A stretch of 64,000 nucleotides of DNA from Bdellovibrionales bacterium (GTDB lineage Bacteria; Bdellovibrionota; Bdellovibrionia; Bdellovibrionales; UBA1609). Below are positions 1-56,231 of this stretch, piece after piece. The translations under genes were made by a program, and so were the position numbers. The stretch lies in the NCBI GenBank assembly GCA_965261545.1, contig CBDHDF010000011.1:256001-320000 (forward strand). The letters run 5' to 3'. Every line of letters starts with the position of its first letter. Position 1 is the stretch's first letter. The notes under the pieces are model-generated. The model had not been told where the DNA came from, did no database searches, and worked only from the letters and a program-made list of their open reading frames with translations.

Positions 1-194
1 CATATAAGATAAGTGTTCTTATAGGCCCAAACAAACATCAACAAAAAAAGGCTTATAATGTTCATTATACCATTTCCTGTGAGAGTTTTCGACCTCTTCA
101 CAGCATGGTAACAACGCACATAAATGATAATAATGATTTTTCTAAGAGCATTAAAAACGTCCATAGGGCTTATGCCCCCTTTTGATTTACTCAT
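1..194 (-). CDS. N-terminus of a membrane protein running off the window edge; possibly the T4SS coupling protein (VirD4/TraD-like)
   Basis: Open frame MSKSKGGISPMDVFNALRKIIIIIYVRC...NIISLFLLMFVWAY overlaps the end of the virB10-like gene. Function inferred from position only. Confidence 0.45.
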   Translation of the reverse strand, partial: MSKSKGGISPMDVFNALRKIIIIIYVRCYHAVKRSKTLTGNGIMNIISLFLLMFVWAYKNTYLI

Positions 195-1449: not shown

Positions 1450-1970
1450 CTCCTAAAGGTTGTGATTGGATCTAATGCTATGATTTGACTTGATGTTGTA
1501 ATCTGCCCTGGTGCAATAATTTTGATTTGACTTGATGTTGTGATCTGACCTGATTGATCTCCATGGGTCTTCATTGATCTCAAAGAGAGCTTCTTAGAAA
1601 ATCTTGTGGGACGTTTCCAATAAACTTTCACTAAGTCATCATAGACTTGGCACCTGCAAACTCTTAAAATAAAACCAAAGCGATGCTGGCCACTGTAGAT
1701 GAATAAATTGCTCGAAAGTTGAGACAAAGGCTGAATGGTCACGTCATTACCTGTAAATTTGATGCTAAAATAATTGCTGTTCCCGTTCACAGCCTTCTTG
1801 GGCCTATCAATGAAATGAAGAATGGTGGAATGCCCCATGGAAAGGGTGATTGTTTCCATCTTATTGTCATTCATTTCAACAACACGCACCCTAGAGTAAG
1901 ATAGAGTCGTAGCAAGAAAAACACTCAAAAAAATAAAAACTAACCAATAAATGCTCCTTTGAATATTCAT
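1437..1970 (-). CDS. VirB9/TrbG-like secreted T4SS protein
   Basis: Signal peptide and ITLSMGHSTILHFIDRP-type N-domain; lies between virB8-like and virB10-like genes. Confidence 0.6.
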   Translation of the reverse strand: MNIQRSIYWLVFIFLSVFLATTLSYSRVRVVEMNDNKMETITLSMGHSTILHFIDRPKKAVNGNSNYFSIKFTGNDVTIQPLSQLSSNLFIYSGQHRFGFILRVCRCQVYDDLVKVYWKRPTRFSKKLSLRSMKTHGDQSGQITTSSQIKIIAPGQITTSSQIIALDPITTFRRWYK

Positions 1971-2563
1971 TATTTATTAAACTCCTTAATGGCACTGATA
2001 TAAATGCCTTTTGGGTTCCACTTGTTGGGTTTATCTCTCATTAATTCAAGATGGATTTTTAAAGGCTGAACCGATTTGACCCTCTTGCCCAATGAAATAA
2101 CACGGTCTATTTCCACATGAACATATCCGTCCTTGGCTTCTATGTTTTGAATCACTACATCTTGAGAAATAGAGTTTTTCTTTATAAATTCTTTGGAATC
2201 CTTTATTTGTTGAAGCACCTTTTTTAGTAAACTATAAGACGCATAGGGGCTTATGTTTCGCATGATGTTTTCCATATTGTAGGACTTCCATTGATAACGC
2301 TCTAAAACAAATCTCTTGGCTGCCTTTTTAAGGTCGGATTCTTGAAGTTCCACCTCCTTTCTTTCTCCGACAAAATAAAAACTTTCTGACTCTGTGAGAG
2401 CAATCACTAGATTTTTCTGATTCATTAAATAAATCATAGTTCCCACAAGAAGCACATTGGACAGAATGAGCCCAAGAGATATTGTTCTTAAATTCCTAAT
2501 AATAAGACTGGCCTTGATCCAATGATTGCAAGGGCCTAAACGCTTTGATTTCATGTTCATCAT
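1970..2563 (-). CDS. VirB8/TrbF/TraK-like protein
   Basis: Single N-terminal TM, FVLERY helix, C-terminal NPKGIYI motif (NPxGxYI of the VirB8 family). Confidence 0.75.
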   Translation of the reverse strand: MMNMKSKRLGPCNHWIKASLIIRNLRTISLGLILSNVLLVGTMIYLMNQKNLVIALTESESFYFVGERKEVELQESDLKKAAKRFVLERYQWKSYNMENIMRNISPYASYSLLKKVLQQIKDSKEFIKKNSISQDVVIQNIEAKDGYVHVEIDRVISLGKRVKSVQPLKIHLELMRDKPNKWNPKGIYISAIKEFNK

Positions 2564-3684
2564 TTTTTATCACCTCCTTGAGGGCTTTCTCCCCCTGGTT
2601 TGTTAAAATCTTCTTTTTGTCTCTTCATGCTTTGGCTCCCATAGCGACTCTGAAAATAACTTTTGGAATGGCCCTCGGAGTGGTCTCGGAAGTGGCCTTG
2701 AAAATGACTCTGGGAAGGATCTTGAAAATGACCTTGGGAATGACTCTGAGAACGACTCCGAGAATAGTTTTTGGGTTGAGATTGAGTCCATTCACTGAGC
2801 TTCTTAAAACCTCTTGATTGAGCAAAATTCCCAAAATTTTTGAGGTTTCTTGCTGTGATCTTGACTCCATGACTTGCCACTTGTTTCCCTTTTTGGGATG
2901 AGAGGGTCGCAGCCTTTTTTATATGCCCTGTAATGATTTTTTGAGAAGCAATGGCTGGAATGGCCGCCAAGCCTCCTGCAAAAGTTGCAAAATCAGAGGA
3001 TAAAAAAGCCTTGGTTGTGATCGGAACGACAAGCATACTTGTACCAATGAAAAGATTGATGACAATGAGAAGTATGGCATTGTAGTCATCTCCTTGGGTA
3101 ATGGGAGCATGGGCTGTAAGCTTCAAAAGAATGACTCCAAGAGCCGTCCAAGTGATTTTCCAGACCATAACAATGCATAGACTTCGGTAAAGCCCCTTGG
3201 TGATCTGTGAGGTGGCCTCGGAGATATAGGCAAGTATCATCAAAGGGGACATGACAAATAAAATTCCCCAACAAAAATGCACCAAGGCATCAGCAATAAA
3301 AGCCCCCAAGTAGGCAAAAATAAAAGAAAGGAGGCTTAAAACCCAAATAAGGGTTTCTTTAAATTGATGCCAACTAAGCTCCATATCTTTGACAAACTTC
3401 CACATCTCGCTAAGCACCTCATTGATATGAGGCGTGGGGCTGATATGAGTGACAATGCCGTCACCAATCAGAGATATCATGCGAAAGACCTCATCAAAAC
3501 TCATAAGCAATATGATGGATAAAGCCGCTCTTTTGATAATGCCAAGGGCATTGGGTTCACGCTCTGGCAACTTAAAAAATTCTAAAATAATCAGCAAAAG
3601 AGTGAGGGGCACAATAGATATCCAATAGATTTCTATCATGTTAGACCGGATCTCTTTACAAACCTCTGGTAGCCACTCGTACAT
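2560..3684 (-). CDS. VirB6/TrbL-like polytopic membrane protein with a repetitive C-terminal tail
   Basis: Multiple TM helices, VMSPLMILAYI segment, operon position. Confidence 0.7.
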   Translation of the reverse strand: MYEWLPEVCKEIRSNMIEIYWISIVPLTLLLIILEFFKLPEREPNALGIIKRAALSIILLMSFDEVFRMISLIGDGIVTHISPTPHINEVLSEMWKFVKDMELSWHQFKETLIWVLSLLSFIFAYLGAFIADALVHFCWGILFVMSPLMILAYISEATSQITKGLYRSLCIVMVWKITWTALGVILLKLTAHAPITQGDDYNAILLIVINLFIGTSMLVVPITTKAFLSSDFATFAGGLAAIPAIASQKIITGHIKKAATLSSQKGKQVASHGVKITARNLKNFGNFAQSRGFKKLSEWTQSQPKNYSRSRSQSHSQGHFQDPSQSHFQGHFRDHSEGHSKSYFQSRYGSQSMKRQKEDFNKPGGESPQGGDKK

Positions 3685-4553
3685 TAAAACACCGGAGGAG
3701 TTGCAAAAGTTGCTTCAAAGGTGTTCAAACTATGGCCCAAGTCACGGGTCACTTTCTTAAAATGATGGTTGGACTCCTTGGCCGCCTTGTTGGACAATGC
3801 CAAGGATTCACTTTGAAGTTTTAGCATTTGACCATTGATCTTTAAAATCTGACTGAGAATATGAAGAATGGCTGCCTGCCCCTCAAGGTTTGTGCGAGCC
3901 GCACCTTTAAGGCCCATATGAGGGGCACTTGCTGCCATACGCCTTGAGTTCTGTTCCTGCGAATGGGCGTAGGAATTTATGGAGCTTACCATTTTAATAC
4001 TCTCTGCCACTGTCTCATCGTGAAGCCTTAACAATAGCTCTTCTTTCCCACGGGGGATTTGACCATAAAGGCGTTCAACCTCATCCATGGCCCCTTTAAA
4101 TGATTTCAAGTCTCCAAGGATTTTCCCACCTTCAATGGGAAAGCTTTCTAAAAGGCCCATGGCCTCATTAAGACCCATATTGATAGACTCGATCATATCC
4201 TTATGTTCCTTGGCATTTTCATAAATTACTTTCATTTGTTCGTATTGTTTGACGGACTGAGAAAGAATCTTAATGAGGTAAGGGGTTGTCATGGCTCCAT
4301 CAATACCTAAAAGCGCATGGCTTTTGTGGGGAGTGAAAGTGACAACAGTCCCTACAAACAGTAAGAATCCTAGGGCGAACAACAGGCGAGAAAATAATGG
4401 GTTCAAGGTGAACAACAGGCGAGGGAATAGCAGGCTTAGGGGGAACAATAGGCGATGAAATAACAGACTTAGAGCGAGTAACAAGTTTGGTGTGACAGAC
4501 TTACATATAAATTCACATAGAAACGCATAGAAAGGAATTTTAATTTTTTTCAA
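3684..4553 (-). CDS. VirB5/TrbJ-like exported helical protein
   Basis: Signal-like SHA cleavage site, helical body, located between virB4 and virB6 homologs. Confidence 0.5.
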   Translation of the reverse strand: MKKIKIPFYAFLCEFICKSVTPNLLLALSLLFHRLLFPLSLLFPRLLFTLNPLFSRLLFALGFLLFVGTVVTFTPHKSHALLGIDGAMTTPYLIKILSQSVKQYEQMKVIYENAKEHKDMIESINMGLNEAMGLLESFPIEGGKILGDLKSFKGAMDEVERLYGQIPRGKEELLLRLHDETVAESIKMVSSINSYAHSQEQNSRRMAASAPHMGLKGAARTNLEGQAAILHILSQILKINGQMLKLQSESLALSNKAAKESNHHFKKVTRDLGHSLNTFEATFATPPVF

Positions 4554-5749
4554 CTTTGCCCTCCTTGGGTTATCTTATGGCTTACAATTTCTTCCAAGAC
4601 CTCCAAATAACTGTGGTCTGGGAATTTCTCTTTAAATTGATGAATAATGGCCTTGTCCTTGGGGTCCGTGGTGCAAATCCAATAGGACAAGGGATCAGGT
4701 TCAATCTTGAGGATGGACTCTTTGTCATCTTGAATATAAAGACATTCTGAAAAGCCTCCCTTCTGTGAACGCAGAGATTTGACAACCTCAATCTCTGTTT
4801 CATTGAGTGAGAGAATTTCTTGAAATTCCTTCCAGTCCACCCCACGCTGCTTTAAAATGATTCGACTGGGTGTGTTTTGCATAATGGCGGCGGCCACCTC
4901 TGGATCAAACATAAAATCTTTAATGGATTGAGTGATTCCCCAAATTCCACCATAGAACTTCCTCATAGTGCGGTAGCACTCAATGACAAATTGGGCGGCA
5001 CTCTCGTTTTGTAAGAGCTTCCAAATCTCATCCACAATGAGAAGGTATCTCTGGGAGGGATTTTTAGACGCCTCATTCATAATATACTCAGTTAAAATGA
5101 GTAAAAGGACTCGCTGAAGATCGGGGTAAACATCAAGCCCCTTCACTTCAATGGCCACAAGGGGTTTTGTGAGTTCAATATTGGTGGGACCATCAAGAAG
5201 CTTTCCGTAGGCACTGGCCCCTGTCCAAGAATACAAAATATCAGCGTACCTTCTCATTTCAACAAGGGGGTGGTTCTTCAATATCTTGAGAAGATCGGTC
5301 ATTGTGGGAGACCCACAAGGTGACGCACAAGAAGATCCACGGGAGGGAACGCAGGAGGAAGTACTGAAAAAGGGAATGTTGAAAAATTGAGTGTAGGTTT
5401 CAGAAATGGCTTGTTCCAAAAGAGCTTTTTCTCTTTTGGGTAACCCCTTTGAATCATCTTCTTTGCAGATGGATTCAATAACTCCTAAAAGGAGTTTTTT
5501 CTTAGTGGGGGAAGCTTCCATCTCTCCCCGGCCCAATTGAAAGGCGTTCAGGACAATGCCACTTTCAAGATTCAAGTCAATGAATTGCCCCCCCAGTGAG
5601 TCCACAAGTCCACGGGAAGAAGCCCCATTGTCTATCCAAACCACCTTGGAAAGTCCAAGGTGGTTTTTTGTCTTCGCCTTCTTCATATTCTTCATATTTG
5701 ATTTCCTATTCATGTCTGGTTTCCTGCTTATGTTTGATTCCCTATTCAT
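4550..5749 (-). CDS. virB4: VirB4/TraC ATPase, C-terminal part (split from the N-terminal part)
   Basis: VVWIDNGAS, Walker B LLIVDEIW, RKFYGGIWGITQS, LSYWICTTDPKD. Confidence 0.85.
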   Translation of the reverse strand: MNRESNISRKPDMNRKSNMKNMKKAKTKNHLGLSKVVWIDNGASSRGLVDSLGGQFIDLNLESGIVLNAFQLGRGEMEASPTKKKLLLGVIESICKEDDSKGLPKREKALLEQAISETYTQFFNIPFFSTSSCVPSRGSSCASPCGSPTMTDLLKILKNHPLVEMRRYADILYSWTGASAYGKLLDGPTNIELTKPLVAIEVKGLDVYPDLQRVLLLILTEYIMNEASKNPSQRYLLIVDEIWKLLQNESAAQFVIECYRTMRKFYGGIWGITQSIKDFMFDPEVAAAIMQNTPSRIILKQRGVDWKEFQEILSLNETEIEVVKSLRSQKGGFSECLYIQDDKESILKIEPDPLSYWICTTDPKDKAIIHQFKEKFPDHSYLEVLEEIVSHKITQGGQS

Positions 5750-7149
5750 GTTTGATCTCCTATAAACATTAAAATAAGTTGGCTTATGGTGAAGGATTTC
5801 CCACTCCCACTGGAACCAATGACAAACCCATTCCAGTTGGGCAGTTCTGGCGCAAAAGGGTCGATGGACACCAAAACATGATCCCGGTTAGTGACAAGGC
5901 ATGTGGGCTTGTTGTTTCCCCTCCAGAATGAAAAAACAGGCAGCAAGTGAGAGAGGTTGGAAGATTTCATTTTCTTAGGACGGTTGGTTTGGCAAAGGCC
6001 CGGAGTCGTCTTTAAGAAAGTATCCAGTGTTGCGAAGGTTTCCACCAAACCCTCGGAGTGATTAAGGCTTTTAAAGGTTCTTAAGACTTCATCGCATTTC
6101 TCATCAAGTTCTCTTGTGGTTTTTCCCCAAATAATGACATTCAGGTCAGCCTCAACCACTTTTTCAGAGCTATCAATAATATCAGACAAAAGACCCTCAA
6201 TTTGGCCAAGCTTTGATTCGCTCTCAAGGTCTTGAACGTGATTGCGCTCACTGCTTGCCATGGAGTGGACAATTCTCCTTTTAAGTTGAAGGACGTTGTA
6301 CTCCCTCGTCTGGTCACAAACTTTAACCACCTGGCTGATCCAGCAATGAAAGGGTAAGGCCAAGAGTTCACGAATGAGCCCCGAATAAGTTTCATCGGGA
6401 AGAGTTCTTAAACTCACGGCTCTAAACTTGTAGCTTCCCACCATCACGTCATGAGAGCTTAGGTGGATATCACTAAGCAAAAACTGTGAGAGCAGGGAGC
6501 TTGGTGAAAAAGCCCTAGGACCTTTGAGTTCTGGAACCCTATGGACTTCGGACCTTGATAGGTTGAAATGTTCATACAGAAGCTCAAACCATTCCTTAGA
6601 TGACAAACGACTCTTGAAGAGTTGCCCATCCTTAAGAGAAGATTCCAAGTGGCTCACCGTTCTTTCAAATCGTTCCACATGGGTTTCAAAGTCCTTGGCT
6701 TGAGCCTTTGTGAAGGGTTTTGTTTTTTGAAAAATCCCCTGCTTCCTAAAGGCAAAGGGAAGACCCTTGAGAAAGCAATAGATTTCAGGTTCAAAGAAAT
6801 AACCCATTTCACGATGACTCTTAAGATGAGAAGTTCGCCCCTCCATGATCTTGCGATAGCCCTCAAGAGGACAATTTCTTGATAAAGAAAGATGCTCCTC
6901 AACAAGGGAGTCCACCTTGGGGGTGAGCTTATAAAGAATCTGCAAAGAGGTTCCCGTTCCAAGACCTGTGATAAGGTTTTCAAGTTTTCTTGTAAACTGG
7001 TTGATCTCATCTGCGGTGGCACAGGAAACATCTTTTCCCTTAATCTTAAAGCCGCAACCCAAGGAACCATCTCCAAAAACCATATAATTTCCAAAGAAAT
7101 GCCATAGATTTAAAAAATCACCGATGTTCTGAGGAACTAACAATTTCAT
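5746..7149 (-). CDS. virB4: VirB4/TraC ATPase, N-terminal part ending just after Walker A
   Basis: Start MKLLVPQ after an AAGGAGG RBS; LPNWNGFVIGSSGSGKSF Walker A; stop 13 codons later. Confidence 0.85.
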   Translation of the reverse strand: MKLLVPQNIGDFLNLWHFFGNYMVFGDGSLGCGFKIKGKDVSCATADEINQFTRKLENLITGLGTGTSLQILYKLTPKVDSLVEEHLSLSRNCPLEGYRKIMEGRTSHLKSHREMGYFFEPEIYCFLKGLPFAFRKQGIFQKTKPFTKAQAKDFETHVERFERTVSHLESSLKDGQLFKSRLSSKEWFELLYEHFNLSRSEVHRVPELKGPRAFSPSSLLSQFLLSDIHLSSHDVMVGSYKFRAVSLRTLPDETYSGLIRELLALPFHCWISQVVKVCDQTREYNVLQLKRRIVHSMASSERNHVQDLESESKLGQIEGLLSDIIDSSEKVVEADLNVIIWGKTTRELDEKCDEVLRTFKSLNHSEGLVETFATLDTFLKTTPGLCQTNRPKKMKSSNLSHLLPVFSFWRGNNKPTCLVTNRDHVLVSIDPFAPELPNWNGFVIGSSGSGKSFTISQLILMFIGDQT

Positions 7150-7537
7150 GCCTCCTTTCTTCTTCAAAGCTAAGCTCATCTCCCACACAAAAAATGCCTG
7201 GGAGTACGGAGAATTTGATAAAGTCTTGAATATAACGCTCAGGCTTTCCCCTCTTGCCAAAATAAATTCCAAGTGCTAAAAGGGCCGGGAGCCCAAAAAC
7301 AAGGGCTCCCGTAAACAGGTTTAAGTTTTGGCTATAAAGGCTTTGACTATAAGCTTGGTCGTAAACATGGCTATATGCCTGACCATAAGTTTGACCATGA
7401 ACCTGACCATAAATCTGGCCAAAAATAAGATTCATCACAGATGCAAAAGCTCCCACAGCAATCACATCAAAAAGCTCCATGCCCAAAATCTTGATCTTTG
7501 AATCAAGGTTTCTATGAACAACAGACCGATCTATCAA
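7118..7537 (-). CDS. VirB3-like small membrane protein
   Basis: VHRNLDSKIKILGMELFD, two TM segments, KRGKPERYI; probable TTG start overlapping the pilin stop. Confidence 0.65.
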   Translation of the reverse strand: MIDRSVVHRNLDSKIKILGMELFDVIAVGAFASVMNLIFGQIYGQVHGQTYGQAYSHVYDQAYSQSLYSQNLNLFTGALVFGLPALLALGIYFGKRGKPERYIQDFIKFSVLPGIFCVGDELSFEEERRHEIVSSSEHR

Positions 7538-7857
7538 TTGAGGACCCCTTGGAGCCACCCAATAATGTAGGGAGCTAAAAAACCCACCCCACTGCCGATC
7601 AGACAAAACCAAATCTTTGACTTGGCTCCTTCATTGCCAATGGCGGCAAGAATCCCAGCCATGACTAAACCCAGAACACTCATCACGGGGAGAATGAAGG
7701 ATGACAATTTGTGTTGTAGATGAGTCATTTTATTTTCAAAACCTGACTTCAAGACCACAGCAAGGGCTTCACTTTGATAGAAGAAAGAAAAAAGCACCAA
7801 AAGGCTTAAAAGAAATATAATGACGGTTATTTGCTTCATCTCAGTTGTTTTCTTCAT
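7534..7857 (-). CDS. VirB2/TrbC-like pilin
   Basis: 107 aa, signal peptide (ALA), two hydrophobic helices, immediately upstream of virB3/virB4. Confidence 0.75.
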   Translation of the reverse strand: MKKTTEMKQITVIIFLLSLLVLFSFFYQSEALAVVLKSGFENKMTHLQHKLSSFILPVMSVLGLVMAGILAAIGNEGAKSKIWFCLIGSGVGFLAPYIIGWLQGVLN

Positions 7858-7858
7858 T

Positions 7859-8296
7859 TTAGTTGGCCTCCTTCATAGGTTGATTAAATTGATTTGAATG
7901 ATTTAAAGAGTTTTTGGATTCGTCCCTTAAGCTCACCACAAGCTGTTTGAAGAATGGGGCGGGTTGCATGATAATCTCATGGGTGGAGGGGTCTAAAAAC
8001 CCCTCCCCTTGAGTAAAAATTTTTGTTCTTCCTCCTCTTTCTTTCATGGGTTTCATGGAGATGAGTCGGTAGCGACATGGCCTGCCAGCCTCACCTCCCA
8101 TGGGTTTTACAAAGTAATGGTTGTCTGGAAAGAAATTGAGAATGAGGCGGTAGTCACCATTTTTCTCATTGTAGTAGGCAACACCTGCCATTTCTCTGGA
8201 ATTTGTGTGGGGGCAATGCCACCACACATAAAACCTTTCATTGGCCTTGTTCTTATCATTGGAGTCGTTGGCATCGTTCTTAGGAAGTCTATTCAT
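7859..8296 (-). CDS. Hypothetical protein (start re-called at MNRLPKND)
   Basis: Coupled ORF in the operon; beta-rich and aromatic; no family recognised. Confidence 0.55.
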   Translation of the reverse strand: MNRLPKNDANDSNDKNKANERFYVWWHCPHTNSREMAGVAYYNEKNGDYRLILNFFPDNHYFVKPMGGEAGRPCRYRLISMKPMKERGGRTKIFTQGEGFLDPSTHEIIMQPAPFFKQLVVSLRDESKNSLNHSNQFNQPMKEAN

Positions 8297-9476
8297 GGTG
8301 AACCGCCTTTTCATTCTGATTTGCCACTTTACCCTTAGGGTCTGTGGCCTTTTTCTTACCGCTTTCCATCTTCTCACTATGGTCTGCCGCCTCCTCCCTA
8401 TGGCCTGCACCCTTCTTATTCTGATCTTCCTCCTTCTCCTCGATGAGTTGCCAATTAAGAATCTCTAGGCTTACATTAAATTCTCTTGTGACTTCATGGA
8501 GCATGGTCGTTGATGAATCGGATTTTCCAATGCTAAAATCTTTTTCTGCCTTTCTAGGGCAATAGCTATAGTCCTGAAAACCCACCTTCACCTCACCCTT
8601 GGATTCAACTATGGGCTTGATGTAAAGTTCATTGATTCCATCAGAGAGCATATCTTCATTGATTTGAAGGGAGGCATAGAGGTATGGGTCATTGAAACCT
8701 TTGAAGTATTTTATTTCCTCAAAGTTATACTCCTTATCTCCAATTCTTAGAACCAAGTCGATGGATTTTGAATCCTTATCAAAAGGAATGGGTGATTCAT
8801 TCTTTCCAAGATAGTCTCGGTGAGAAACCACACACTTTCCCTTTTCCTCTATGTATCCACACCTTTTTGAGATGTTAGACTTTGAAGGGTCTTCACAAAA
8901 ATGATTCTTCCAAGATGCTTCAACAGAGACATCATAGATGCTCGAGAACCGACTCTCTTTTCGCACACCACTTCTCACTTTGACTTCGACCATATCACCG
9001 GCTTTCACACGGCTGACCCAAAGCTCCTTATCAACTCTTTGGTCTCTAAGGATCACATCCATCATTCGTCTAAAGCGAGGAGGAGATACCTTTTTCTTAT
9101 TTTCAGGTACTGGCTCTTTAACATTGTCGGATTCCTGAGTAGGTCCTTCCTCTTTGTTTGTGGTGTCATTCAGATTATTGATGTCTTCCATGGCCTTTAT
9201 GGAATCTATGGCATCTCGACACCCATGACGTCCTTTTTTGCCTTCTGCCACCTCTGTAGGATCCATTAAAAGATCGTTCCTAAAATATTTCATCTTCTCG
9301 TCTTCTAGTCCTCTGAAAATGATGCAAGGAGTGCCTTCTGACTCTTCATCCAAACCACCACACGCAGACAAAACCATTGGCAAGGTAATAAGACCTAAAA
9401 AAGCTATTCTTTTAAAAATTCTTACTTCATTCTTCTTACAAAAAAATTGGCAGATATTATTTTTTCTTTTATTCAT
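8289..9476 (-). CDS. Putative lipoprotein
   Basis: Lipobox VLSAC after a hydrophobic stretch; Cys-containing body. Confidence 0.65.
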   Translation of the reverse strand: MNKRKNNICQFFCKKNEVRIFKRIAFLGLITLPMVLSACGGLDEESEGTPCIIFRGLEDEKMKYFRNDLLMDPTEVAEGKKGRHGCRDAIDSIKAMEDINNLNDTTNKEEGPTQESDNVKEPVPENKKKVSPPRFRRMMDVILRDQRVDKELWVSRVKAGDMVEVKVRSGVRKESRFSSIYDVSVEASWKNHFCEDPSKSNISKRCGYIEEKGKCVVSHRDYLGKNESPIPFDKDSKSIDLVLRIGDKEYNFEEIKYFKGFNDPYLYASLQINEDMLSDGINELYIKPIVESKGEVKVGFQDYSYCPRKAEKDFSIGKSDSSTTMLHEVTREFNVSLEILNWQLIEEKEEDQNKKGAGHREEAADHSEKMESGKKKATDPKGKVANQNEKAVHHE

Positions 9477-9682
9477 GACTGTAATTCTCCTAAAGGTTGG
9501 ATTTTTATTTTTTTTAGTTTTTTTAATTTTATTAATCTTCTTAATTTTTCTTTAACTTGTTTGCGATATTTCTTATCGTAGAATTTATTATTCTTCTGCA
9601 TATCACATCTTCTACTAATGACTTCCAAATCATTTATTTCTTTACCTTTCTTAAACGCACCTAAATTTCGTAGTTTCGACAT
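9473..9682 (-). CDS. Small basic hypothetical protein
   Basis: Lys-rich 69 aa ORF; ATGA overlap with the next gene. Confidence 0.45.
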   Translation of the reverse strand: MSKLRNLGAFKKGKEINDLEVISRRCDMQKNNKFYDKKYRKQVKEKLRRLIKLKKLKKIKIQPLGELQS

Positions 9683-9686
9683 TACA

Positions 9687-9899
9687 TTAACTCTCCACCA
9701 CTATGATTGATTTGATCAGATTGAAGGTATCTACAAGATCAAGTGTTTTTTCGTTTCTCTCTTGTATTTCATCAATCGCATCAAAAATCTCCATTGTTTC
9801 CAAACTATAAAGACCACATGATGGGCACTTGTACGGAAAGTTAAATTCAACATAAAAAGCCTCATCACAACGCAAACAACTTTTCATTCTATATCTCAA
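9687..9899 (-). CDS. Small zinc-ribbon protein
   Basis: CLRC...CPSC; GGAGGTG RBS upstream. Confidence 0.6.
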   Translation of the reverse strand: MRYRMKSCLRCDEAFYVEFNFPYKCPSCGLYSLETMEIFDAIDEIQERNEKTLDLVDTFNLIKSIIVVES

Positions 9900-9936
9900 A
9901 AATTTATCACCTCCATTTCAAATAAATTCTTTTTTA

Positions 9937-10446
9937 TTAAATTCTTTTTTTTATCACTTTTTTATTCATTTTCTTTTTCCCATGACATCGATTTCTTCTT
10001 ATGACTTCTTTCAACAAAAGATCAGAAATTCTCTTAAGGGCACGATCTTTTGTGTATTTAACAGCCACACGACTGACACCAAGCTTTTTTGAAGCTCCGC
10101 CCAAGCTAAGGTTTTCCCAGAAAATGTGATGTAAAACCTGTCTTTGATTCTCTGAAAGCTGATTGATGATCTCTCCCAGAATTTCTTCCAGATGAAGGAA
10201 ATTCTTTGGATCGGTGGCCGGAGAGAAGACTTTTTCATGATCTTCTTGAGAAAGATTCTCAGAAAGACGCCCCATCATGCTTGAGTTCTCCATGAGAAGC
10301 TCTTTTTGTTTAACGTCTACAGTGGAATCAAGATAGGTCTCCCAATCACTCGCTGACCAACTATGACAGACCTTTTTGATCTCTTCATCAGACATTGGTA
10401 AGCCGTCTTTTTGGGTCCAAATTTTACTTGTACTCTTTTTTTTCAT
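9937..10446 (-). CDS. Sigma70 region-4 (ECF-like) transcription factor heading the transfer operon
   Basis: LSENQRQVLHHIFWENLSLGGASKKLGVSRVAVKYTKDRALKRI HTH; AAGGAG RBS before MKKKSTS. Confidence 0.8.
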   Translation of the reverse strand: MKKKSTSKIWTQKDGLPMSDEEIKKVCHSWSASDWETYLDSTVDVKQKELLMENSSMMGRLSENLSQEDHEKVFSPATDPKNFLHLEEILGEIINQLSENQRQVLHHIFWENLSLGGASKKLGVSRVAVKYTKDRALKRISDLLLKEVIRRNRCHGKKKMNKKVIKKRI

Positions 10447-10562
10447 ATCAACTCCTTGTAATGCTCCCTGCAATGTTCTCTTGTTTTCAAGGAAGCTAAG
10501 AATTAAACTCATTTTCTCACTTCTTTAATTATTTAATAATTTACTCTTCTTTCTATTCACCT

Positions 10563-10961: not shown

Positions 10962-10977
10962 TGCACAAGACGGACCA
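10962..10977 (-). promoter_or_regulatory. Candidate sigma54 (-24/-12) promoter facing the sigma/T4SS operon
   Basis: Minus strand reads TGGTCCGTCTTGTGCA = GG-N10-GC; an imperfect match to the TGGCACG-N4-TTGC consensus. Confidence 0.55.
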
Positions 10978-10992
10978 AATGTTCCAAAGACA

Positions 10993-11005
10993 TAAATGAC
11001 TGATT
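10993..11005 (-). promoter_or_regulatory. IHF consensus site
   Basis: AATCAG-TCAT-TTA matches WATCAR-N4-TTR; lies between the sigma54 motif and the upstream boxes. Confidence 0.55.
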
Positions 11006-11030
11006 TTATTGGATATTTAATTTTGAGATA

Positions 11031-11174
11031 TGGACCATAAATAGGTCATGGCCCAAAATATTGAGTTAATTTCATCGAAGCGAAGTAAAAGTAAAGAACA
11101 GTGGACCACTTTCGGTCTATTTAAAATATGTGATGAATGATTTAAGGGATTTAGACAAACCCACAAGTGGGACA
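11031..11174. promoter_or_regulatory. Cluster of 18-bp imperfect palindromes (candidate enhancer sites)
   Basis: TGGACCATAAATAGGTCA (11031), TGGACCACTTTCGGTCTA (11102), AAACCCACAAGTGGGACA (11157). Confidence 0.55.
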
Positions 11175-43299: not shown

Positions 43300-43499
43300 A
43301 CGACCCTTCCTTTGTAAAAGTTGCTCTCCTTCTTTCCTCTTTGAAGTTTTCCATGTGGTTTGGAGTCACCCAAAAGGAAAAAACGAAAGGCTATAGGGGC
43401 ACAATACCAAATATCATATCTAAATCAATATTTTTGTAACAATAATTGTATAGCAAGGCATAAACCTTGGGGAGATAATCTACTAGACGGAGGGGTTCT

Positions 43500-43883
43500 A
43501 TGGTCATCTTGGACAAGCAAGTTAAATTCATTATTGAAAGCCTTATGGAGTTTGCTGTTCCAAAGGGCATGGAACCTAAAGAAAGAGCTGGAGTTGCCAA
43601 AAAGGCTGGCCTGAGCCCTGAAACACTACGCACCATGTCTGGAAGAAAATCTGTCAATGCTGATACTTTGGTGCGCCTTCTTATAGCCCGTGGAGTCAAT
43701 CCAAAACTTCTTTTAAATCTTCCTTATTTAGAAACCCCCCAGGTAGATGGTTCTGAGCTTGAGTGGATCAAGTTTGGTCAGAAGATGAAATCACAAGAAA
43801 AGGTTGAGTTTGTGCGTTTAGCGAAGTTTCTGAGAGTTCGCTGGGGGCTTATCAAAAAAAAATCTATAGCATATAAGAAATAA
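43500..43883 (+). CDS. XRE-like HTH regulator (paralog B)
   Basis: Highly similar to 41292-41675, in inverted orientation. Confidence 0.7.
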   Translation: MVILDKQVKFIIESLMEFAVPKGMEPKERAGVAKKAGLSPETLRTMSGRKSVNADTLVRLLIARGVNPKLLLNLPYLETPQVDGSELEWIKFGQKMKSQEKVEFVRLAKFLRVRWGLIKKKSIAYKK

Positions 43884-45023: not shown

Positions 45024-45184
45024 TGTCCCAAAAATGGCCTCGTTTAAATAGGAGGTCGCCTTAAATGGACCATGGGTGGTCCATTGAAGATATTTAAATA
45101 TTTCAGAAAAAAAGTGTGTCATTTCATAATGATAAATACTTTTCTTTTGCACACACCTCATATCTTGACCCAAACTTTGGTCAA
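45024..45184. promoter_or_regulatory. Cluster of 18-bp palindromes (candidate enhancer sites)
   Basis: TGTCCCAAAAATGGCCTC (45024), TGGACCATGGGTGGTCCA (45066), TGACCCAAACTTTGGTCA (45166). Confidence 0.55.
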
Positions 45185-45243
45185 TGGAATGACAGTGAGA
45201 TGGTGTGAGTGCCTTGAAACCCACTTAGGTTTGAATACAGATT

Positions 45244-45259
45244 TGGCATGATTTATGCT
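45244..45259 (+). promoter_or_regulatory. Sigma54 (-24/-12) promoter
   Basis: TGGCATGATTTATGCT = GG-N10-GC, upstream of a GAFTGA-activator operon. Confidence 0.7.
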
Positions 45260-45571
45260 TATAAAAATCTATGAAAGCATTTTTTAATTTACATCATTTG
45301 AACTTACATCATAAAGGCTCATATATTTTTAGGTCTATATTAGAAACCACATCTTTTGATTTACTCCCCATCATAGCCTCTAAATATTACAGGAAAGAAA
45401 AGAACTAAGAAGAATTAAGAATAAGGTGTCACGCCCACCTATATATGAAAGTCTATAAAAGACATGTTCATAACATGAAAGACATGCTCATATAGTTCAT
45501 ATAGATATATAGGTCGTATAAAGGGCTGTAGGCAATAGATTCGATTCTACAATAGTGGGAGGTATCAATCA

Positions 45572-47002
45572 ATGAACTATAAAATTCTTATCGCCGATGA
45601 CCAAGAATCTGTTCTTGATAATTTTCGAGAAATGTTCAAGAACCATTTGGACATTGAGCCCACCCTGACCCAACAATCCTTGGATGCCTTAAAGCTTATC
45701 CAAGAAAACCCCGATGATTATGCCGTTGTTGTTCTGGACTACCATTTTGAAGGTCAAAAACTCAATGGAGCGCAGGTGGCTCAAGAGATTCTTAAGATCA
45801 ACCCCAAGTTGATTGTTCTTATTTGCACAGGGGACATGGGGCGAGAAGCTCCTATTTCTTGTCTCAAGGCCGGAGTGAGTGACTTCATTCAAAAAGACGA
45901 ACCCCTTGATAAGATTATTTCTAGAATTAGATCCAATTTTAGAAAGTTTGATGAACTTTCAAGAGTGGTGACAAGCAAATCCACCCAATATCAGTCCCAC
46001 CAAAAAGAATTTGAAAATGCATCTTTGATTTCAAAATTGGGTATGATCGGTTGCTCTGCATCTATGGCTTCAGTGGCACAAAAGGTCTTGACCTTGAGTA
46101 AGAATGGAGGGGATAAGTCTACAATACTTATTCGTGGTGAGTCGGGAACAGGAAAAGAGCTTGTTGCAAGAGCCATTCATGAAAACTCATCTCGAAAGGC
46201 AAAGCTTCGCATTGATATCAATTGTGCTTCTATTCCAGAGGGTCTTTTAGAATCAGAGCTTTTTGGCCATGAAAAGGGAGCCTTTACGGGAGCCGATAAG
46301 AAGCGGCTTGGTAAGTTTCAAGTGGCCACAGGTGGTACAATTTTTCTTGATGAAATTGGCGAAATGCCCAAAGAACTTCAGGCTAAACTTCTTCGAGTCT
46401 TGCAAGAAAAAACCATTGAACCCATTGGCTCCAACTCTCCCATACCTGTGGATGTTCGAGTGATTGCCGCAACACATGTGAATCTTGAGGAAAAGGTTAA
46501 ATCTGGGGAATTTAGGGAAGACCTCTTTTATCGACTGAACCAAATTCCCCTCTTTATTCCCTCCCTAAGAGAGCGTCCCGAAGATATTCCCCCTTTGGTG
46601 ACCCACTTTATGGACAAACACTCTGGGAGAGAAAAGAAAAAACTTATGTATAAGACCTTGCAATACTTAAAATCTTACCAGTGGAATGGCAATATTCGTG
46701 AACTCGAAAACACCATCAAGCAATTGGTTGTTTTAACCCCCAGTGATGAGATTCGTCCAGAGCATCTTGATGCTAAGATATTTGAAGCCAACAGCAGGGC
46801 GGCCACAATGTCGTATCCAGAGTTTAAAAATATTGTGAATAAAAAAGTCGAAGAGGAAGAAAAAGAATTTCTTGTCTCAAGAATAAGAGCTTATCCCTCC
46901 TTAAGGGCTGCGGCAAAGGCTCTATCTATACCAAAAACCTCACTCCAGAGGAAACTCTCTGAATGGGGATATTCTTCAAAGGGCGAGGGGGTGTTGGTAT
47001 GA
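45572..47002 (+). CDS. NtrC-family sigma54-dependent response regulator
   Basis: REC (ADDQ, LDY, K), GESGTGKE, GAFTGA, FLDEIGEM, FREDLFYRL, C-terminal HTH. Confidence 0.95.
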   Translation: MNYKILIADDQESVLDNFREMFKNHLDIEPTLTQQSLDALKLIQENPDDYAVVVLDYHFEGQKLNGAQVAQEILKINPKLIVLICTGDMGREAPISCLKAGVSDFIQKDEPLDKIISRIRSNFRKFDELSRVVTSKSTQYQSHQKEFENASLISKLGMIGCSASMASVAQKVLTLSKNGGDKSTILIRGESGTGKELVARAIHENSSRKAKLRIDINCASIPEGLLESELFGHEKGAFTGADKKRLGKFQVATGGTIFLDEIGEMPKELQAKLLRVLQEKTIEPIGSNSPIPVDVRVIAATHVNLEEKVKSGEFREDLFYRLNQIPLFIPSLRERPEDIPPLVTHFMDKHSGREKKKLMYKTLQYLKSYQWNGNIRELENTIKQLVVLTPSDEIRPEHLDAKIFEANSRAATMSYPEFKNIVNKKVEEEEKEFLVSRIRAYPSLRAAAKALSIPKTSLQRKLSEWGYSSKGEGVLV

Positions 47003-48081
47003 GTTTCTTAAAAACAATGGAAGACTATCTACTCAAAAAGGCTATAAAGCATATTGGAGGCCAAAAAAACATGGCCATTCAACTGGACATTACAAATGCC
47101 TGCAATCTTAAATGTTCCCACTGTTACCATTCCAATCATAAAAATACGGGAGCTTTAAACCTTGAAGGCTGGCTTGAGATTCTTGACCAGTACGACAAGA
47201 TGCTTCAAACTCTCAAGCTACAACCCTATATTGTGATTTGCGGTGGGGAACCCACATTAAGCCCTTATCTCTTTTCTATTCTAAAAAGAGCCAATGAGCT
47301 TTGGGAAAGTCCCACCATTACGATTCTCACCAATGGCACAAGGCTTACGGACAAACTACTGTCTTCCCTCAGTGAGTACAATATGCGGTTTCAAGTCTCT
47401 TTAGATGGCCCTGATGCTAAGAGGCATGATGCTCTTCGTGGTAAAGGGAATTTCCAAAAGGCACTGGAGGGAGCCAAACGGGCAAAGCAGTACGGCATTG
47501 AGATAAACATTTTAAGTATTTTATCAAAGAAGACCTCCCATTGGATTCCAGAGTTCTTTCAAATGGCCAAGGAAAACAGCCTTGATTCCATGAGTTTTAC
47601 AAGATTTATCCCACAGGGTTTTGGCGCAGAACTTGTCGAAACGGGTGGGGATGATTCCTTATATGGTTTTGAGTTAAGAGATGCCATGCAGTCCATCATC
47701 CATTTTTCAGAAAAATATGAAGTTCCAACTTCAACAGACCACCCCTTATATCACCTCATTGACCCCACGCTTGGTCATAATGGCCGTTTTGGATTTCAGG
47801 GCCTTGTTGTGGATTACAAAGGTAACTTGAAGGTCTCCAGCAGAGCCGACTACATACTTGGAAATATACTCGACGAAGGTCTTCAAAATTTATTTTTACA
47901 CCATCCTTTGATGAAGGATTTGAGAACCCCCCAAAAGATCAATGGGTGCGGTGCTTGTATGTATTATACCCGATGTGGTGGAAATAGAAATATAAGCTAT
48001 GCCACAACAGGAAGTTTCTTAGAAAAAGATAAAGGATGTTGGATTCCGTCAGCATCTACAAAGAAAGGAGTTGTCGCATGA
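46999..48081 (+). CDS. Radical SAM protein with an atypical SPASM domain
   Basis: CNLKCSHC, GGEP, TNG, VSLDG, C-terminal CGAC-x5-C...C. Confidence 0.92.
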   Translation: MSFLKTMEDYLLKKAIKHIGGQKNMAIQLDITNACNLKCSHCYHSNHKNTGALNLEGWLEILDQYDKMLQTLKLQPYIVICGGEPTLSPYLFSILKRANELWESPTITILTNGTRLTDKLLSSLSEYNMRFQVSLDGPDAKRHDALRGKGNFQKALEGAKRAKQYGIEINILSILSKKTSHWIPEFFQMAKENSLDSMSFTRFIPQGFGAELVETGGDDSLYGFELRDAMQSIIHFSEKYEVPTSTDHPLYHLIDPTLGHNGRFGFQGLVVDYKGNLKVSSRADYILGNILDEGLQNLFLHHPLMKDLRTPQKINGCGACMYYTRCGGNRNISYATTGSFLEKDKGCWIPSASTKKGVVA

Positions 48082-48452
48082 AGAAATTAATAAGAAAAAG
48101 TATTTTAGGAATTATATCTCTTATGCCAATACAAGCATTAGGATTTGCTTCAGATTTTTCCTCAATTTTTTTATCAGACATATATGAAGATAGTGCTCCA
48201 AATACTGCAAACCAAGAATATGAAAAAGAACTTGTGAGACGACTTGAAGAGGGAACACTGTCTCATAAATATTATGATTTCATGGAAAAGCATAGAATAC
48301 ATAGCACGGATGATCTATTGTCTTCTCGATCTCAGAAGAATTTAAAGAAGCTCACAAGAGAATTTATTAAAGATATCCATGAACCACTTCTTGCAAGTAA
48401 AAATGTGATATTATCAGAAAATCTAAGCGACGCATGGCCAAAGAAAAAATGA
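48078..48452 (+). CDS. 124-aa secreted protein; candidate precursor/signal
   Basis: AAGGAG RBS, signal peptide MKKLIRKSILGIISLMPIQALG, C-terminus LSENLSDAWPKKK. Role inferred from context. Confidence 0.65.
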   Translation: MKKLIRKSILGIISLMPIQALGFASDFSSIFLSDIYEDSAPNTANQEYEKELVRRLEEGTLSHKYYDFMEKHRIHSTDDLLSSRSQKNLKKLTREFIKDIHEPLLASKNVILSENLSDAWPKKK

Positions 48453-50005
48453 AAAATAAAAAGGATTTTTGTATAATGAAGAAAATATTATTTTTAACTA
48501 CCTTAATTATGGCTATATCTTTTATTTATTGGATAGGTAGCCAAAAGGAGAAAGGTGAGATGATCTTAAAAGTAGGATATCCTGGCAATTGGCATGACCT
48601 TATACCATCACTTCAACATACGGCTTATGCTGACGATATCATGCATAACCAATTTGAAACATTAGTTGTTATTGGCAGAAATGGAAAATCTGAAAGCATG
48701 GCCGCCAAATCGTGGTCCATCAGTGATGATAAAAGATCATTTACTTTCAATATTGATACAACTCGTAAATTCTCCAATGGAGTTTCGTTATCAGCAACTC
48801 ACTTCAAGGAGGCATGGGAGTATAGCCTCACCATTGATCCAAAATCTTCAAATAATAGCTTACTCGATGTTCTTTATAAAATTAAAGGATTTGAAGACTA
48901 TGAAAAAAATGGAGAAATATCTGGAATTAAGGTTATTGATGACTCTACTTTAAGAATTGACTTTCAGAATACTTTTCGCATAGGTCTCAATCATTTGGCT
49001 GGAACAAGAATGGCTGCCTTCATAAGGGAAGGAAATAAGTTTCTTGGCACAGGACCCTATGTCATCAACCCAATAAGCAGTGAAGAGCTTCTTCTTACTA
49101 AAAATAATTTCTATGAAGAGTCGATACCTTTTGACAAGGTGAGCGTCAAAGTTGTTCCTCCTCAGCATTCTCGTGATGCGCTAGGAAGAGGTGAAATTGA
49201 TCTTTATAAATTTGCTGAGATTGGTTATATTGATTCTTGCTTTGATAAAAATGTAGAATGTATTTCTGGCTCTGAAAATCGCCATATAGCTATAGCACTT
49301 AACGGAATGAAAAAGCGTCTTCTAAGCAATACCAACCATCGGAAAGCCCTTCAATATTTATTCTTTGAGAGTTTCACTGACAAAGATATACCAGAAGAAG
49401 ATCGTTTAAAAATTCAAATTGACCCCCAAATATTTTTACCTCTTCAGGCAGGAAGACTTGAAGACAAGGAGGCAAGTAGAATTATCCATGAAGGAAAAAA
49501 ATATGTGGATGATTTTATTAAGGCAACCCATGAGAGTCCTCTCTATCTAGCAGTATCTAATAGCGTATTATGGTACAAATCTTATCTTGAAAAGAAAGGA
49601 GTCCAATTTTCTGAAAATTCTATTGATTTTCAAGGGGAGGAACTGGCAAAAATGTATTATAAGACCTTTGAACCAGATATGATGATTTCATACAAAAGCG
49701 TTTTTGATGGTGACCCTGATGGAATATATCATACTATCGGAGAAAAAGGAGCTATCAGTTCGCCCATGTTATACCGCAAAGATGTGCTAAAACTTCTTGA
49801 AGAAGGCCGTAAAATACTTTCTTTTAAAGATTTATCTTCACATTACGAAAAAGTGGCAAGAGCTTTTTTGCATGAAATTCCATTTATTCATGTGGGTTTC
49901 CTAAAAGAAATGTCTATCATAAGAAAAGATTCTGTAAAATCAGAAAATAATTACAATCATCGTAATAGTGTTCGGTTTACAAGCTACCACCCCATGAGGA
50001 AGTAA
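48449..50005 (+). CDS. Membrane-anchored family 5 (OppA/DppA-like) solute-binding protein
   Basis: FETLV, AAKSWSISDDKRSFTFNI, KFSNG, GIKVIDDSTLRI, GTGPY; no permease or ATPase genes nearby. Confidence 0.85.
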   Translation: MKNKKDFCIMKKILFLTTLIMAISFIYWIGSQKEKGEMILKVGYPGNWHDLIPSLQHTAYADDIMHNQFETLVVIGRNGKSESMAAKSWSISDDKRSFTFNIDTTRKFSNGVSLSATHFKEAWEYSLTIDPKSSNNSLLDVLYKIKGFEDYEKNGEISGIKVIDDSTLRIDFQNTFRIGLNHLAGTRMAAFIREGNKFLGTGPYVINPISSEELLLTKNNFYEESIPFDKVSVKVVPPQHSRDALGRGEIDLYKFAEIGYIDSCFDKNVECISGSENRHIAIALNGMKKRLLSNTNHRKALQYLFFESFTDKDIPEEDRLKIQIDPQIFLPLQAGRLEDKEASRIIHEGKKYVDDFIKATHESPLYLAVSNSVLWYKSYLEKKGVQFSENSIDFQGEELAKMYYKTFEPDMMISYKSVFDGDPDGIYHTIGEKGAISSPMLYRKDVLKLLEEGRKILSFKDLSSHYEKVARAFLHEIPFIHVGFLKEMSIIRKDSVKSENNYNHRNSVRFTSYHPMRK

Positions 50006-51723
50006 TGAATATTATAACTCTTAAGCAATGGTTTTTTAGAAATACGAGATTCCCCCTGATTACATTAGGTTCTGTGGTAGCTCTTGTACAGATTGCCTTT
50101 CTTATCCATACTCACAAGGAATTAAGAAAAGGGCAAGACAAAGCTATTCGTAATCTTGTTGCCACAGTTGCAAATATTGGTATTCAACAAAAAAACAGAA
50201 CCCTCCTTGAGTCATCATTTCAGCTTGCCATTGAAGAGCTTGGAGTGAAGTCTATGATTGTGTGCAAAGGGTCAAGGCGTCTTTTTCATCAACCTGCTGG
50301 GTTTGGGAGTTGTCCAAATCCTCCGCAATCCAATTCATATCAATACATCATTGAAATTAACCCTTCGGGGTTTCATGAATACAAATTTTATTTTTATGTG
50401 AGTCGATTCCCTCTTAATTTTTCACTTGTGGCTCTTAACGGTATTACTCTTATATTCTTAATCATTGTATTTCGCATCATATACAAAATTCAAAGAAAAT
50501 TCCATGATGATATTTTATTTCCATTAAAAGACGCATTAAAGGATGATTTATCTGAAAAAAATAAATTTCAAATTAATGAACTTAATTCTATCAGGGAAAC
50601 ATTCGATGAACATCGTAAGTCAAAAGAAAAACAGGCCATTGCTGGAGCTATTGTTGAGCATAACATGAATATTAACCATAATATTAAATCCATTAAACAA
50701 ACTCTTGATGTTATCATATCGGGAGAATTTTCTTCAAACAGACAAAAGAAACGATTTCATCAAGTTTCAAATGATTTTACAAGGCTTATGGCCAAGGTGG
50801 CTGAACAAATACCCGATAGAAATCAGGCCCAACTTATTACATCAGATAAAACATTCTTTGAATATCTTGAAGAAGGAAACCAAAAAAAGACAAAAGTAAA
50901 CGTCAAAGATGCCTTTGAAATTGCTATCGAGCATAAAAAAATTGAAACGAAGGCACATGCAGAAGATATTCATATTGATCTTTCTTATAAAGATGAAATC
51001 AAAAATTTATTCATTGAGGCTGTGGACCCTGAACTAAGAGGTATTCTTTCCAATTTGATGAATAATTCCATTGATTCAAAGGCCACTCATATTCAAATCG
51101 AGTTGTGCAAAAAAGATTCTAATCTTGTAGCTACCCTGGTTGATAATGGTGCAGAAATCCCTGAAGATATTAAGAAAAATATTTTCCATCGCGGTTTTAG
51201 TTGGGGTAAAGAGAAGGGGACAGGCTATGGACTTTACCATGCTCAAAAATTCATAGAGTCATGGGGTGGAGAACTGAACCTCTTAAAAAGTAAGACAAGA
51301 AGTAAAGACGGAAGTAAAAAAGGACAAACAATTTTTGAAATAAGGCTGCCCCTATGGAAGCCCTCACCTATAAATCTTGATTCAAAAAGCCATATAGTGA
51401 TAGTGGATGATGAGGAATCAGTCCATAGCAAATGGTCTGAAAAGATAACATCCATCAATCCAAGTGCGAAAGTCCTCCACTTCAAGAAACCCCATGAGTT
51501 TCAAGTTTGGTTTAGCGGCAATCATGTCTTTTCTGACCATGTATTCTTTTTTGATAGCGACCTTGGAGACAATGAAGAAACTGGAGAACATTTGATAGAT
51601 GAGATGGGTCTTAATCATATGTCCTACCTTGTCACAAACAACTATAACAATTCAAAGTTAGCAAGCTGGTGTAACAAGAGGTCCATTCAGGTGATCCCCA
51701 AGGGTTATTTGTTGGGTTCGTGA
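50005..51723 (+). CDS. Membrane histidine kinase with a C-terminal receiver-like domain
   Basis: Two TMs, H-box NHNIKS, NLMNNS, DNG, GTGYGLY, IVDDE..FFDSDLG. Confidence 0.9.
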   Translation: MNIITLKQWFFRNTRFPLITLGSVVALVQIAFLIHTHKELRKGQDKAIRNLVATVANIGIQQKNRTLLESSFQLAIEELGVKSMIVCKGSRRLFHQPAGFGSCPNPPQSNSYQYIIEINPSGFHEYKFYFYVSRFPLNFSLVALNGITLIFLIIVFRIIYKIQRKFHDDILFPLKDALKDDLSEKNKFQINELNSIRETFDEHRKSKEKQAIAGAIVEHNMNINHNIKSIKQTLDVIISGEFSSNRQKKRFHQVSNDFTRLMAKVAEQIPDRNQAQLITSDKTFFEYLEEGNQKKTKVNVKDAFEIAIEHKKIETKAHAEDIHIDLSYKDEIKNLFIEAVDPELRGILSNLMNNSIDSKATHIQIELCKKDSNLVATLVDNGAEIPEDIKKNIFHRGFSWGKEKGTGYGLYHAQKFIESWGGELNLLKSKTRSKDGSKKGQTIFEIRLPLWKPSPINLDSKSHIVIVDDEESVHSKWSEKITSINPSAKVLHFKKPHEFQVWFSGNHVFSDHVFFFDSDLGDNEETGEHLIDEMGLNHMSYLVTNNYNNSKLASWCNKRSIQVIPKGYLLGS

Positions 51724-56100: not shown

Positions 56101-56231
56101 GCATAGAAGATTTGAATAGATACTAATAATGAAGTTCAAGAATAAAAAAAATATTACGAGTTAAAGAATTATTTTTCTCTTTAATCCGAGGAAATGAATG
56201 AATTTCATAAAATATATGGAGACTTATTTTT

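Follow-up and report, generated by a model that had tools for sequence, protein, structure and literature searches.

Ribosomal peptide quorum signals have been described as typical of Gram-positive bacteria, and for agr the same account reports a linked polymorphism of signal and sensor (PMC9306890). Among two-component systems that employ a binding protein, AioR is an AAA+ activator acting at an RpoN promoter (PMC5908839), and CBP is a family-5 binding protein working with the kinase ChiS (PMC8050422). Here, we describe a gene cassette at positions 45,024 to 51,723 of a 64,000-nucleotide stretch (the window) of a Bdellovibrionales bacterium (assembly GCA_965261545.1, contig CBDHDF010000011.1, positions 256,001 to 320,000 of the forward strand). 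It encodes a sigma54 activator, a radical S-adenosylmethionine (SAM) enzyme, a small exported protein, an orphan family-5 solute-binding protein (the candidate receptor) and a histidine kinase. Judging from sequence, we consider it probable, with sizeable room for error, that the cassette is a pheromone circuit based on a modified peptide and belonging to integrative conjugative elements and islands of the Bdellovibrionota. A first-pass annotation of the window had proposed an agr-like, Trp-crosslinking circuit on a mobile element, an interpretation that is partly supported by the results below.

All five genes lie on the forward strand where that annotation had placed them, and they are coupled by overlapping start and stop codons (ATGA at 46999, 48078 and 48449; TAATG at 50003; by inspection of open reading frames). 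The first gene (45572..47002) encodes a 476-residue activator of REC-AAA+-HTH architecture with the expected GAFTGA motif at residue 236; its REC and sigma54 AAA+ domains score above the Pfam cut-off and its HTH below it, and because of the receiver domain we class it as a response regulator. It is followed by a 360-residue radical SAM enzyme of an unnamed family (46999..48081), whose SPASM-like domain has conserved cysteines only at 317, 320, 326 and 347, and by the 124-residue small protein (48078..48452), which does end in DAWPKKK and consists of a signal or leader segment (residues 1-24), a helical body and a Gly/Ser-rich tail. The binding protein (518 residues, 48449..50005), correctly recognised as OppA-like, has the family-5 fold (SBP_bac_5, E 5e-27) and a hydrophobic N-terminal membrane anchor. 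The kinase (572 residues, 50005..51723) is, as annotated, a membrane protein with two transmembrane segments, a HATPase domain (E 3e-16) and a C-terminal receiver-like domain; its periplasmic domain carries invariant Cys87 and Cys103, and His225 and the N and G boxes are invariant across 21 aligned relatives.

Is this arrangement a property of one contig or of a family? We examined 54 loci of the radical SAM family (fetched homologous loci carry L-numbers; G000 is the host genome, and C2, C10 and C11 are places in it) and based synteny counts on the 35 with at least 2.5 kb downstream, a set that includes one duplicate record and the three copies of the host genome. The order radical SAM enzyme, small exported protein, family-5 binding protein, kinase was found in 33 of the 35, in agreement with the predicted synteny, and the small gene is present in every one. 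The two misses are L003, with an insertion sequence in place of the receptor, and L154, with a truncated receptor and no kinase. The order is kept down to about 40% identity of the radical SAM enzyme and across many families of the phylum. The enzyme family forms about 40 clusters at 50% identity, separated from a 30% background, and a profile search detected it in 16 genomes out of 401 for the phylum and in 23 out of 384 for the order (host genome included). A phage origin was rejected, the best 80 viral loci reaching at most 33% identity. The conserved composition is a four-gene core; the activator is not a fixed member, since about half of the loci have none directly upstream, and other loci show an activator of a different clade, a REC-HTH protein or none. 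Permease genes were absent from all 54 loci, and the same search gave 16 matches in the host genome as a control; the cassette is in this respect no Opp/Dpp importer, the ATPase not having been searched separately. With a binding protein encoded beside a kinase and no transporter, it has the gene layout of a binding-protein-dependent two-component system.

The best indication of a substrate role for the small protein comes from the enzyme slot, which is filled by two unrelated peptide-modifying families, each with a matching tail chemistry. Besides the radical SAM cassette, the host genome holds four sister cassettes, each beside conjugation genes, with the order activator, small exported protein, orphan family-5 protein, enzyme, kinase, in which the enzyme is a YcaO (G000:C11:224656-230524, C11:438665-444946, C2:29382-35648 and C11:476837-482758; YcaO above the Pfam cut-off in all three that were scanned). 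The same four core parts occur in six of ten YcaO loci fetched from other genomes, three of them ordered enzyme, precursor, receptor, kinase. YcaO-type tails are rich in Cys and Thr (Cys in 7/9), and the receptors of these cassettes form a separate clade, 17-18% identical. Homology between the two precursor types beyond the signal peptide was not detected for the one YcaO precursor compared (probability 3%). In two of the four YcaO cassettes a divergent sigma54-like site points toward a sigma70 region-4 gene, and the YcaO-type precursor encoded at L265:6936-7250 (reverse strand) has a two-Cys core in tandem repeat. A third cassette type in the same genome comprises a sigma54 activator, in part a 303-residue beta-barrel-like protein, a 1009-1030-residue ankyrin protein with a signal-like start, and a kinase, with the family-5 protein absent (G000:C10:77227-84243, C10:226421-232439 and C11:982993-990010).

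A second line of evidence is the existence of specificity types. The host genome carries the radical SAM cassette in three copies; the C2 copy is 98-100% identical to the window with an insertion in the enzyme gene, and the C10 copy has an insertion in the activator gene. Between window and C10, identity amounts to 98-100% for the activator and 92% for the radical SAM enzyme, compared with 36% for the precursor body, 25% for its tail, 58% for the receptor, 58% for the periplasmic part of the kinase and 81% for its DHp domain. DNA identity drops from 87-100% to 51-79% at about position 48100, and the block from there to 51723 (forward strand; precursor, receptor and kinase) is lower in GC, with about 34% over 48-51 kb. 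At silent sites the divergence of receptor and kinase (26/72 and 36/80 identical) far exceeds that of activator and enzyme (75/79 and 64/81), which argues for an old block swapped by recombination. Contigs from four runs of one sample, possibly the source, span 47235-51718, with a second allele diverging at 48099. The assembly has a contamination of 3.7%, so the cassette copies could come from close strains. The agr-like linkage of signal and sensor that had been anticipated is thus seen in one allele pair of the host genome. Over 25 loci, similarity of the mature precursor also tracks that of the receptor once enzyme similarity is removed (partial r 0.49; kin are not independent), so that the predicted covariation holds for the mature protein and not for the tail alone.

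How is the cassette switched on? A sigma54 (-24/-12) site of GG-N10-GC type lies at 45244..45258 on the forward strand (8/10 consensus positions), preceded by three palindromic 7-4-7 boxes, which bears out the annotated promoter and boxes. Box 1 (45024..45041), imperfect and a candidate activator site, lies 220 nt before the sigma54 site (about -210 to -243 in relatives); box 2 (45066..45083) has its counterpart in relatives at about -154 to -178; and box 3 (45166..45183) lies at -78, compared with -65 to -71 in most relatives. The single sigma54 match is within chance for the 64-kb window (1 found, 2.1 expected), and we regard it as real because it is conserved in relatives: all 15 activator-first loci for which upstream sequence is available carry a site, and among the 47 non-redundant loci 22 have one, where the reverse strand gives 3 and shuffled sequences predict 2.1. 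The same 15 loci all hold near-perfect 7-4-7 palindromes of one type, one to three per locus and at recurring distances. The site lies 329 nt before the start codon here and 49-93 nt in relatives. With rpoN present in the host genome, all parts of an autoregulated sigma54 operon are in place (the -24/-12 site, the palindromic boxes and the GAFTGA activator), and the activator gene is by its layout wired for self-activation, the activator being predicted to bind the boxes. A strict box pattern matches ten sites in the host genome, six of them at the three cassette copies; a list of regulated genes drawn from it is incomplete. Two activator-type boxes with no clear sigma54 site lie about 330 nt from a tRNA-Pro gene (L273:4450-4510, equal to G000:C2:550450-550510), and these could alternatively be recombination-related sites at an element end. 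A broken piece of the same activator gene, with the rest of the cassette absent, is found at G000:C2:221392-222127, and in two GC-rich metagenome loci a short protein resembling a sigma54 DNA-binding domain is encoded between activator and radical SAM enzyme (L171:4753-5805 and L174:4682-5728, the latter scanned).

The layout of the small gene is that of a cluster for peptides made on ribosomes and modified after translation (RiPPs), with a short precursor, a conserved leader and a variable core beside a maturase. The 124-residue protein has no family match in Pfam or NCBIfam scans, and an Atlas search with it gave no usable match. All small proteins share a signal-like start of 24 residues, and a profile of this start built without the host genome singles out the three precursor copies, and no others, from 8084 reading-frame starts (22 bits, the next score being 11.5). 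Being family-specific, the start may double as leader; the conservation of its Pro is partly circular, most precursors having been chosen by a Pro-containing pattern. There is a precedent in the bufferins, Sec-signal RiPP precursors that are modified and later found minus the signal peptide, which in their case was not needed for modification (PMC11626156). Tat export is unsupported, K-K being commoner than R-R at the two signal positions, with R-K in the window; the genome has TatC.

Precursor bodies range from about 25 to 100 residues. Tail counts leave aside duplicates (L016, L168, L172, L177), genes cut by a contig end, insertion sequence or frameshift (L003, L004, L019, L143, L149, L161, L163, L053) and the atypical L176. 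Of 34 complete radical SAM-type precursors, 33 have a Ser within the last 10 residues (background 0.49), whereas only nine have a Trp within the last 14, none has a tail Cys, and His is rare. In the window's subgroup of 18 precursors Ser117 (codon at 48426, forward strand) is invariant and is our candidate for the modified residue. Trp120 is variable there, and the C10 allele and the closest relatives shift or lose it; the conserved, crosslinked Trp of the first-pass annotation was accordingly rejected.

The enzyme itself tells against Trp crosslinking as well. It is a member of the radical SAM superfamily (PF04055, E 4e-24), with the CxxxCxxC motif (C35/C39/C42) in 38 of 38 aligned members, and its structure model (pLDDT 91) has SkfB, SuiB and anSME as predicted nearest folds, at 18-22% identity. 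Four C-terminal cysteines are kept in all 38 members; positions 280 and 329 are Ser/Thr and Asp/Asn/Ser here and Cys in the canonical neighbours L183-L189. The enzyme therefore lacks the Cys ligands of one auxiliary cluster and is no canonical SPASM protein: the radical SAM part of the annotation stands, the full SPASM part does not, with no Pfam SPASM match and none of the 25 best NCBIfam models reaching its cut-off. By anSME numbering, we take the kept set to be AuxII and the lost cluster to be presumably the one nearest the substrate. With only the four C-terminal cysteines left, streptide-like crosslinking is doubtful, and the WgkB, DynA and GrrM models fall far below cut-off. In SuiB the substrate-nearest auxiliary cluster is proposed as oxidant of the Lys-Trp radical (PMC10114670), and the loss of that cluster here adds to the doubt. 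The nearest precedents in that source are anSME, which like AtsB oxidises Ser or Cys to formylglycine, and TqqB, which forms an ether by linking a Thr hydroxyl (PMC10114670). A redox-neutral change on the precursor is possible as an alternative. Taken together, a radical SAM enzyme with one auxiliary cluster points to a candidate for new radical chemistry on a Ser-bearing substrate.

What the circuit would control is suggested by the carrying element. The cassette, which the annotation had placed on a mobile element, shares its window with conjugation genes (TrbI, TraE-like, TraG P-loop and TraC-like, at 187-7272), which together with a sigma70 region-4 protein occupy 187..10512 on the reverse strand. 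Upstream of them lies a candidate output promoter (10963..11119, reverse strand) with boxes at 11119-11102 and 11048-11031 and a GG-N10-GC site at 10977-10963. This layout aligns with the leaders of L020, L002 and L151, in which transfer genes directly follow the cassette, and the box-to-site spacing is 71 nt in the window, L020 and L002. A shuffle control for the leader was discarded, as it required two strict palindromes, a pattern that the window leader itself does not fulfil. A transfer leader with 99.8% identity is found some 10 kb away from the C10 allele. As an integrative conjugative element the window copy is represented by its transfer genes; its integrase and att ends were not located. 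In this promoter a further -24-like element stands ahead of the first by exactly 10 nt (10987-10963, reverse strand), kept in L020, L002 and L151, and three imperfect copies of a 40-70 nt repeat precede the sigma70 region-4 gene (10570-10890, reverse strand).

Based on these observations, we propose that the small protein, while still in the cytoplasm, has its C-terminal tail modified by the radical SAM enzyme; the conserved Ser or a residue next to it would be the likeliest target, and Ser oxidation, an ether link or epimerisation the possible chemistry. The signal peptide would route the product through Sec, and host proteases would free the tail or the mature protein. The membrane-anchored family-5 protein would then capture the product and alter the adjacent kinase, as synteny and precedent suggest; the kinase would phosphorylate the activator, and the latter, bound to boxes that are conserved as sites, would activate its own operon and the transfer genes through sigma54. 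The ligand could turn the loop on or off, a sign that is not readable from sequence. Precursor, receptor and kinase would recombine as a block and so generate specificity types. If true, signalling in Bdellovibrionota by a modified peptide that is read out through a periplasmic co-receptor and sigma54 would be new in design and would provide this phylum and its mobile elements with a testable communication system; all parts are small, reconstruction in E. coli is feasible, and the natural allele pairs suit specificity tests. Quite possibly, and we propose this only tentatively, the cassettes form a family of Gram-negative ribosomal-peptide pheromone systems on a common chassis of Sec-exported precursor, orphan family-5 co-receptor, kinase and sigma54 activator, with a plug-in maturase slot taken by a radical SAM enzyme on Ser tails or a stand-alone YcaO on Cys/Thr tails. 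Through them the conjugative elements of predatory-type bacteria would take a census of their own kind, told apart by swapped types, and time their transfer, while the radical SAM enzyme, left with a single auxiliary cluster from the unusual half of the SPASM domain, would make an undescribed Ser modification.

Several observations weigh against the pheromone reading, and some of them lend weight to a rival. Among shorter loci, L181 combines enzyme and receptor but has no small gene, and in L176 the small gene is followed by an MFS transporter where the receptor is expected. In the short tails of some distant members the Ser is placed irregularly. Of 29 other loci, only 7 have homologous transfer genes in the flanks that were fetched, so that control of transfer is likely for element-borne copies and no more than possible for the rest. 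Co-folding of receptor residues 38-518 with the precursor tail 93-124 (score 0.01) is evidence neither way.

The rival that survives best, which we hold to be unlikely, is a cell-autonomous switch in which the modified protein stays in the periplasm of its producer as partner or plug of the receptor, and its loss or dilution through envelope damage, prey contact or arrival in a new host is sensed instead of density. Sec reaches only the periplasm, and the cassette encodes neither a protease nor an outer-membrane exporter. It is the whole mature protein that tracks the receptor; taken by themselves, its last 12 residues show no such relation (partial r 0.09, 167 of 1000 permutations, 25 loci). 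The window subgroup keeps the helical body with an invariant Tyr65; in six members, however, the body measures only about 25-40 residues and is thus dispensable, and block-swapped alleles on near-identical elements, as well as receptor-only loci, fit signalling between cells better.

Those receptor-only loci also bear on a second rival, which we judge improbable: that receptor, kinase and activator sense an outside small molecule or prey peptide, in the manner of AioXSR or CBP-ChiS, and that enzyme and small protein are a co-regulated output, for example a bufferin-like metal binder. Ten further receptor loci include five that have upstream sequence but no intact enzyme and precursor (L254:6386-8136, L261:6205-7049, L256, L257 and L259); they hold a receptor, mostly with kinase, and two retain a short remnant of the enzyme gene. 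Such loci may be listener-only forms or point to some other ligand of the receptor. In its fold the receptor is no closer to peptide binders than to opine or nickel binders (13-20% identity for all) and so does not name the ligand; family-5 proteins are described with sugars, nickel complexes and opines as further ligands (PMC8050422). Although the tails differ, a large number of receptor residues are invariant. Nevertheless, in the allele swap the precursor changes with the receptor and not with the enzyme, YcaO cassettes combine another receptor clade with another tail chemistry, and the radical SAM tails are free of Cys and poor in His.

Very improbable is an import route, in which the orphan protein would pass the product to a chromosomal Opp permease for action inside the cell. 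Enterococcus plasmid pheromone receptors offer a parallel, and two Opp-type operons elsewhere in the host genome could be borrowed; yet the kinase gene directly follows the receptor in nearly all loci, the output regulator has a receiver domain, and no cytoplasmic peptide receptor is encoded. A chance gathering of cargo genes, for which the abundance of insertion sequences in the window might speak, has next to no credence given the synteny to about 40% enzyme identity and the conserved promoter and boxes.

Further features of the window touch none of these subjects. An inverted duplication (41292-43883, 86% identical, also at the C2 copy) holds two 127-residue HTH-like genes that enclose a 122-residue gene and a 275-residue HATPase gene, the latter two sharing their first 40 residues. 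A 684-residue protein with two PKD domains and DUF285 repeats is encoded at 38798-40852 on the reverse strand. A 1319-residue protein without Pfam match, followed by an AAA_15/AAA_21 ATPase (52141-58004, GC 28-30%), looks like defence cargo.

How does the cassette compare with known systems? No published description of such a system was found in the literature searched, which covered few subscription papers and no supplements, and a giant-gene paper (10.1101/2023.11.21.568195) is unrelated to the cassette. With Vfm of Dickeya the cassette shares a Gram-negative peptide-type signal, a two-component relay and an accessory sensor varying with the signal; Vfm differs in that its signal is non-ribosomal and its proposed co-sensor an ABC permease (PMC9306890). 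Bufferins are likewise Sec-signal RiPP precursors, modified in the cytoplasm and located in the periplasm, but they are described with an MNIO enzyme, Cys-derived thiooxazoles, copper binding and no dedicated receptor-kinase pair (PMC11626156). SuiB/StrB, SkfB, TqqB and anSME resemble the maturase in fold and radical SAM motif (PMC10114670), whereas the cassette enzyme is 17-22% identical, passes the cut-off of no listed curated model, retains four C-terminal Cys and is encoded beside a precursor without a Lys-Trp motif. What the locus adds to these is a single genome with both kinds of enzyme, an allele swap that arose naturally, a Ser tail and a reduced SPASM domain. As in ICEBs1 RapI-PhrI, pLS20 and pCF10, an element's own peptide would control its transfer genes; those systems use unmodified peptides, Opp import and cytoplasmic RRNPP receptors.

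From agr the cassette differs in lacking AgrB, a thiolactone Cys, a polytopic AgrC and a LytTR regulator (no AgrB, AgrD, AgrC or LytTR match in Pfam and NCBIfam, and no Cys in the tails), and in having a Gram-negative host, a separate binding protein, a sigma54 activator and a radical SAM or YcaO enzyme. The likeness lies in precursor, processing enzyme, kinase and regulator forming one unit in which signal and sensor vary together (PMC9306890). With AioX-AioS-AioR, LuxP-LuxQ, TorT-TorS and CBP-ChiS it shares a periplasmic binding protein as kinase sensor; their ligands are arsenite (AioX), AI-2 (LuxP), TMAO (TorT) and chitin sugars (CBP), and none is described in these sources as co-encoding a ribosomal precursor and a maturase (PMC5908839, PMC8050422). 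In summary, the cassette resembles agr in its logic and AioXSR and CBP-ChiS in its wiring, and is a member of neither.

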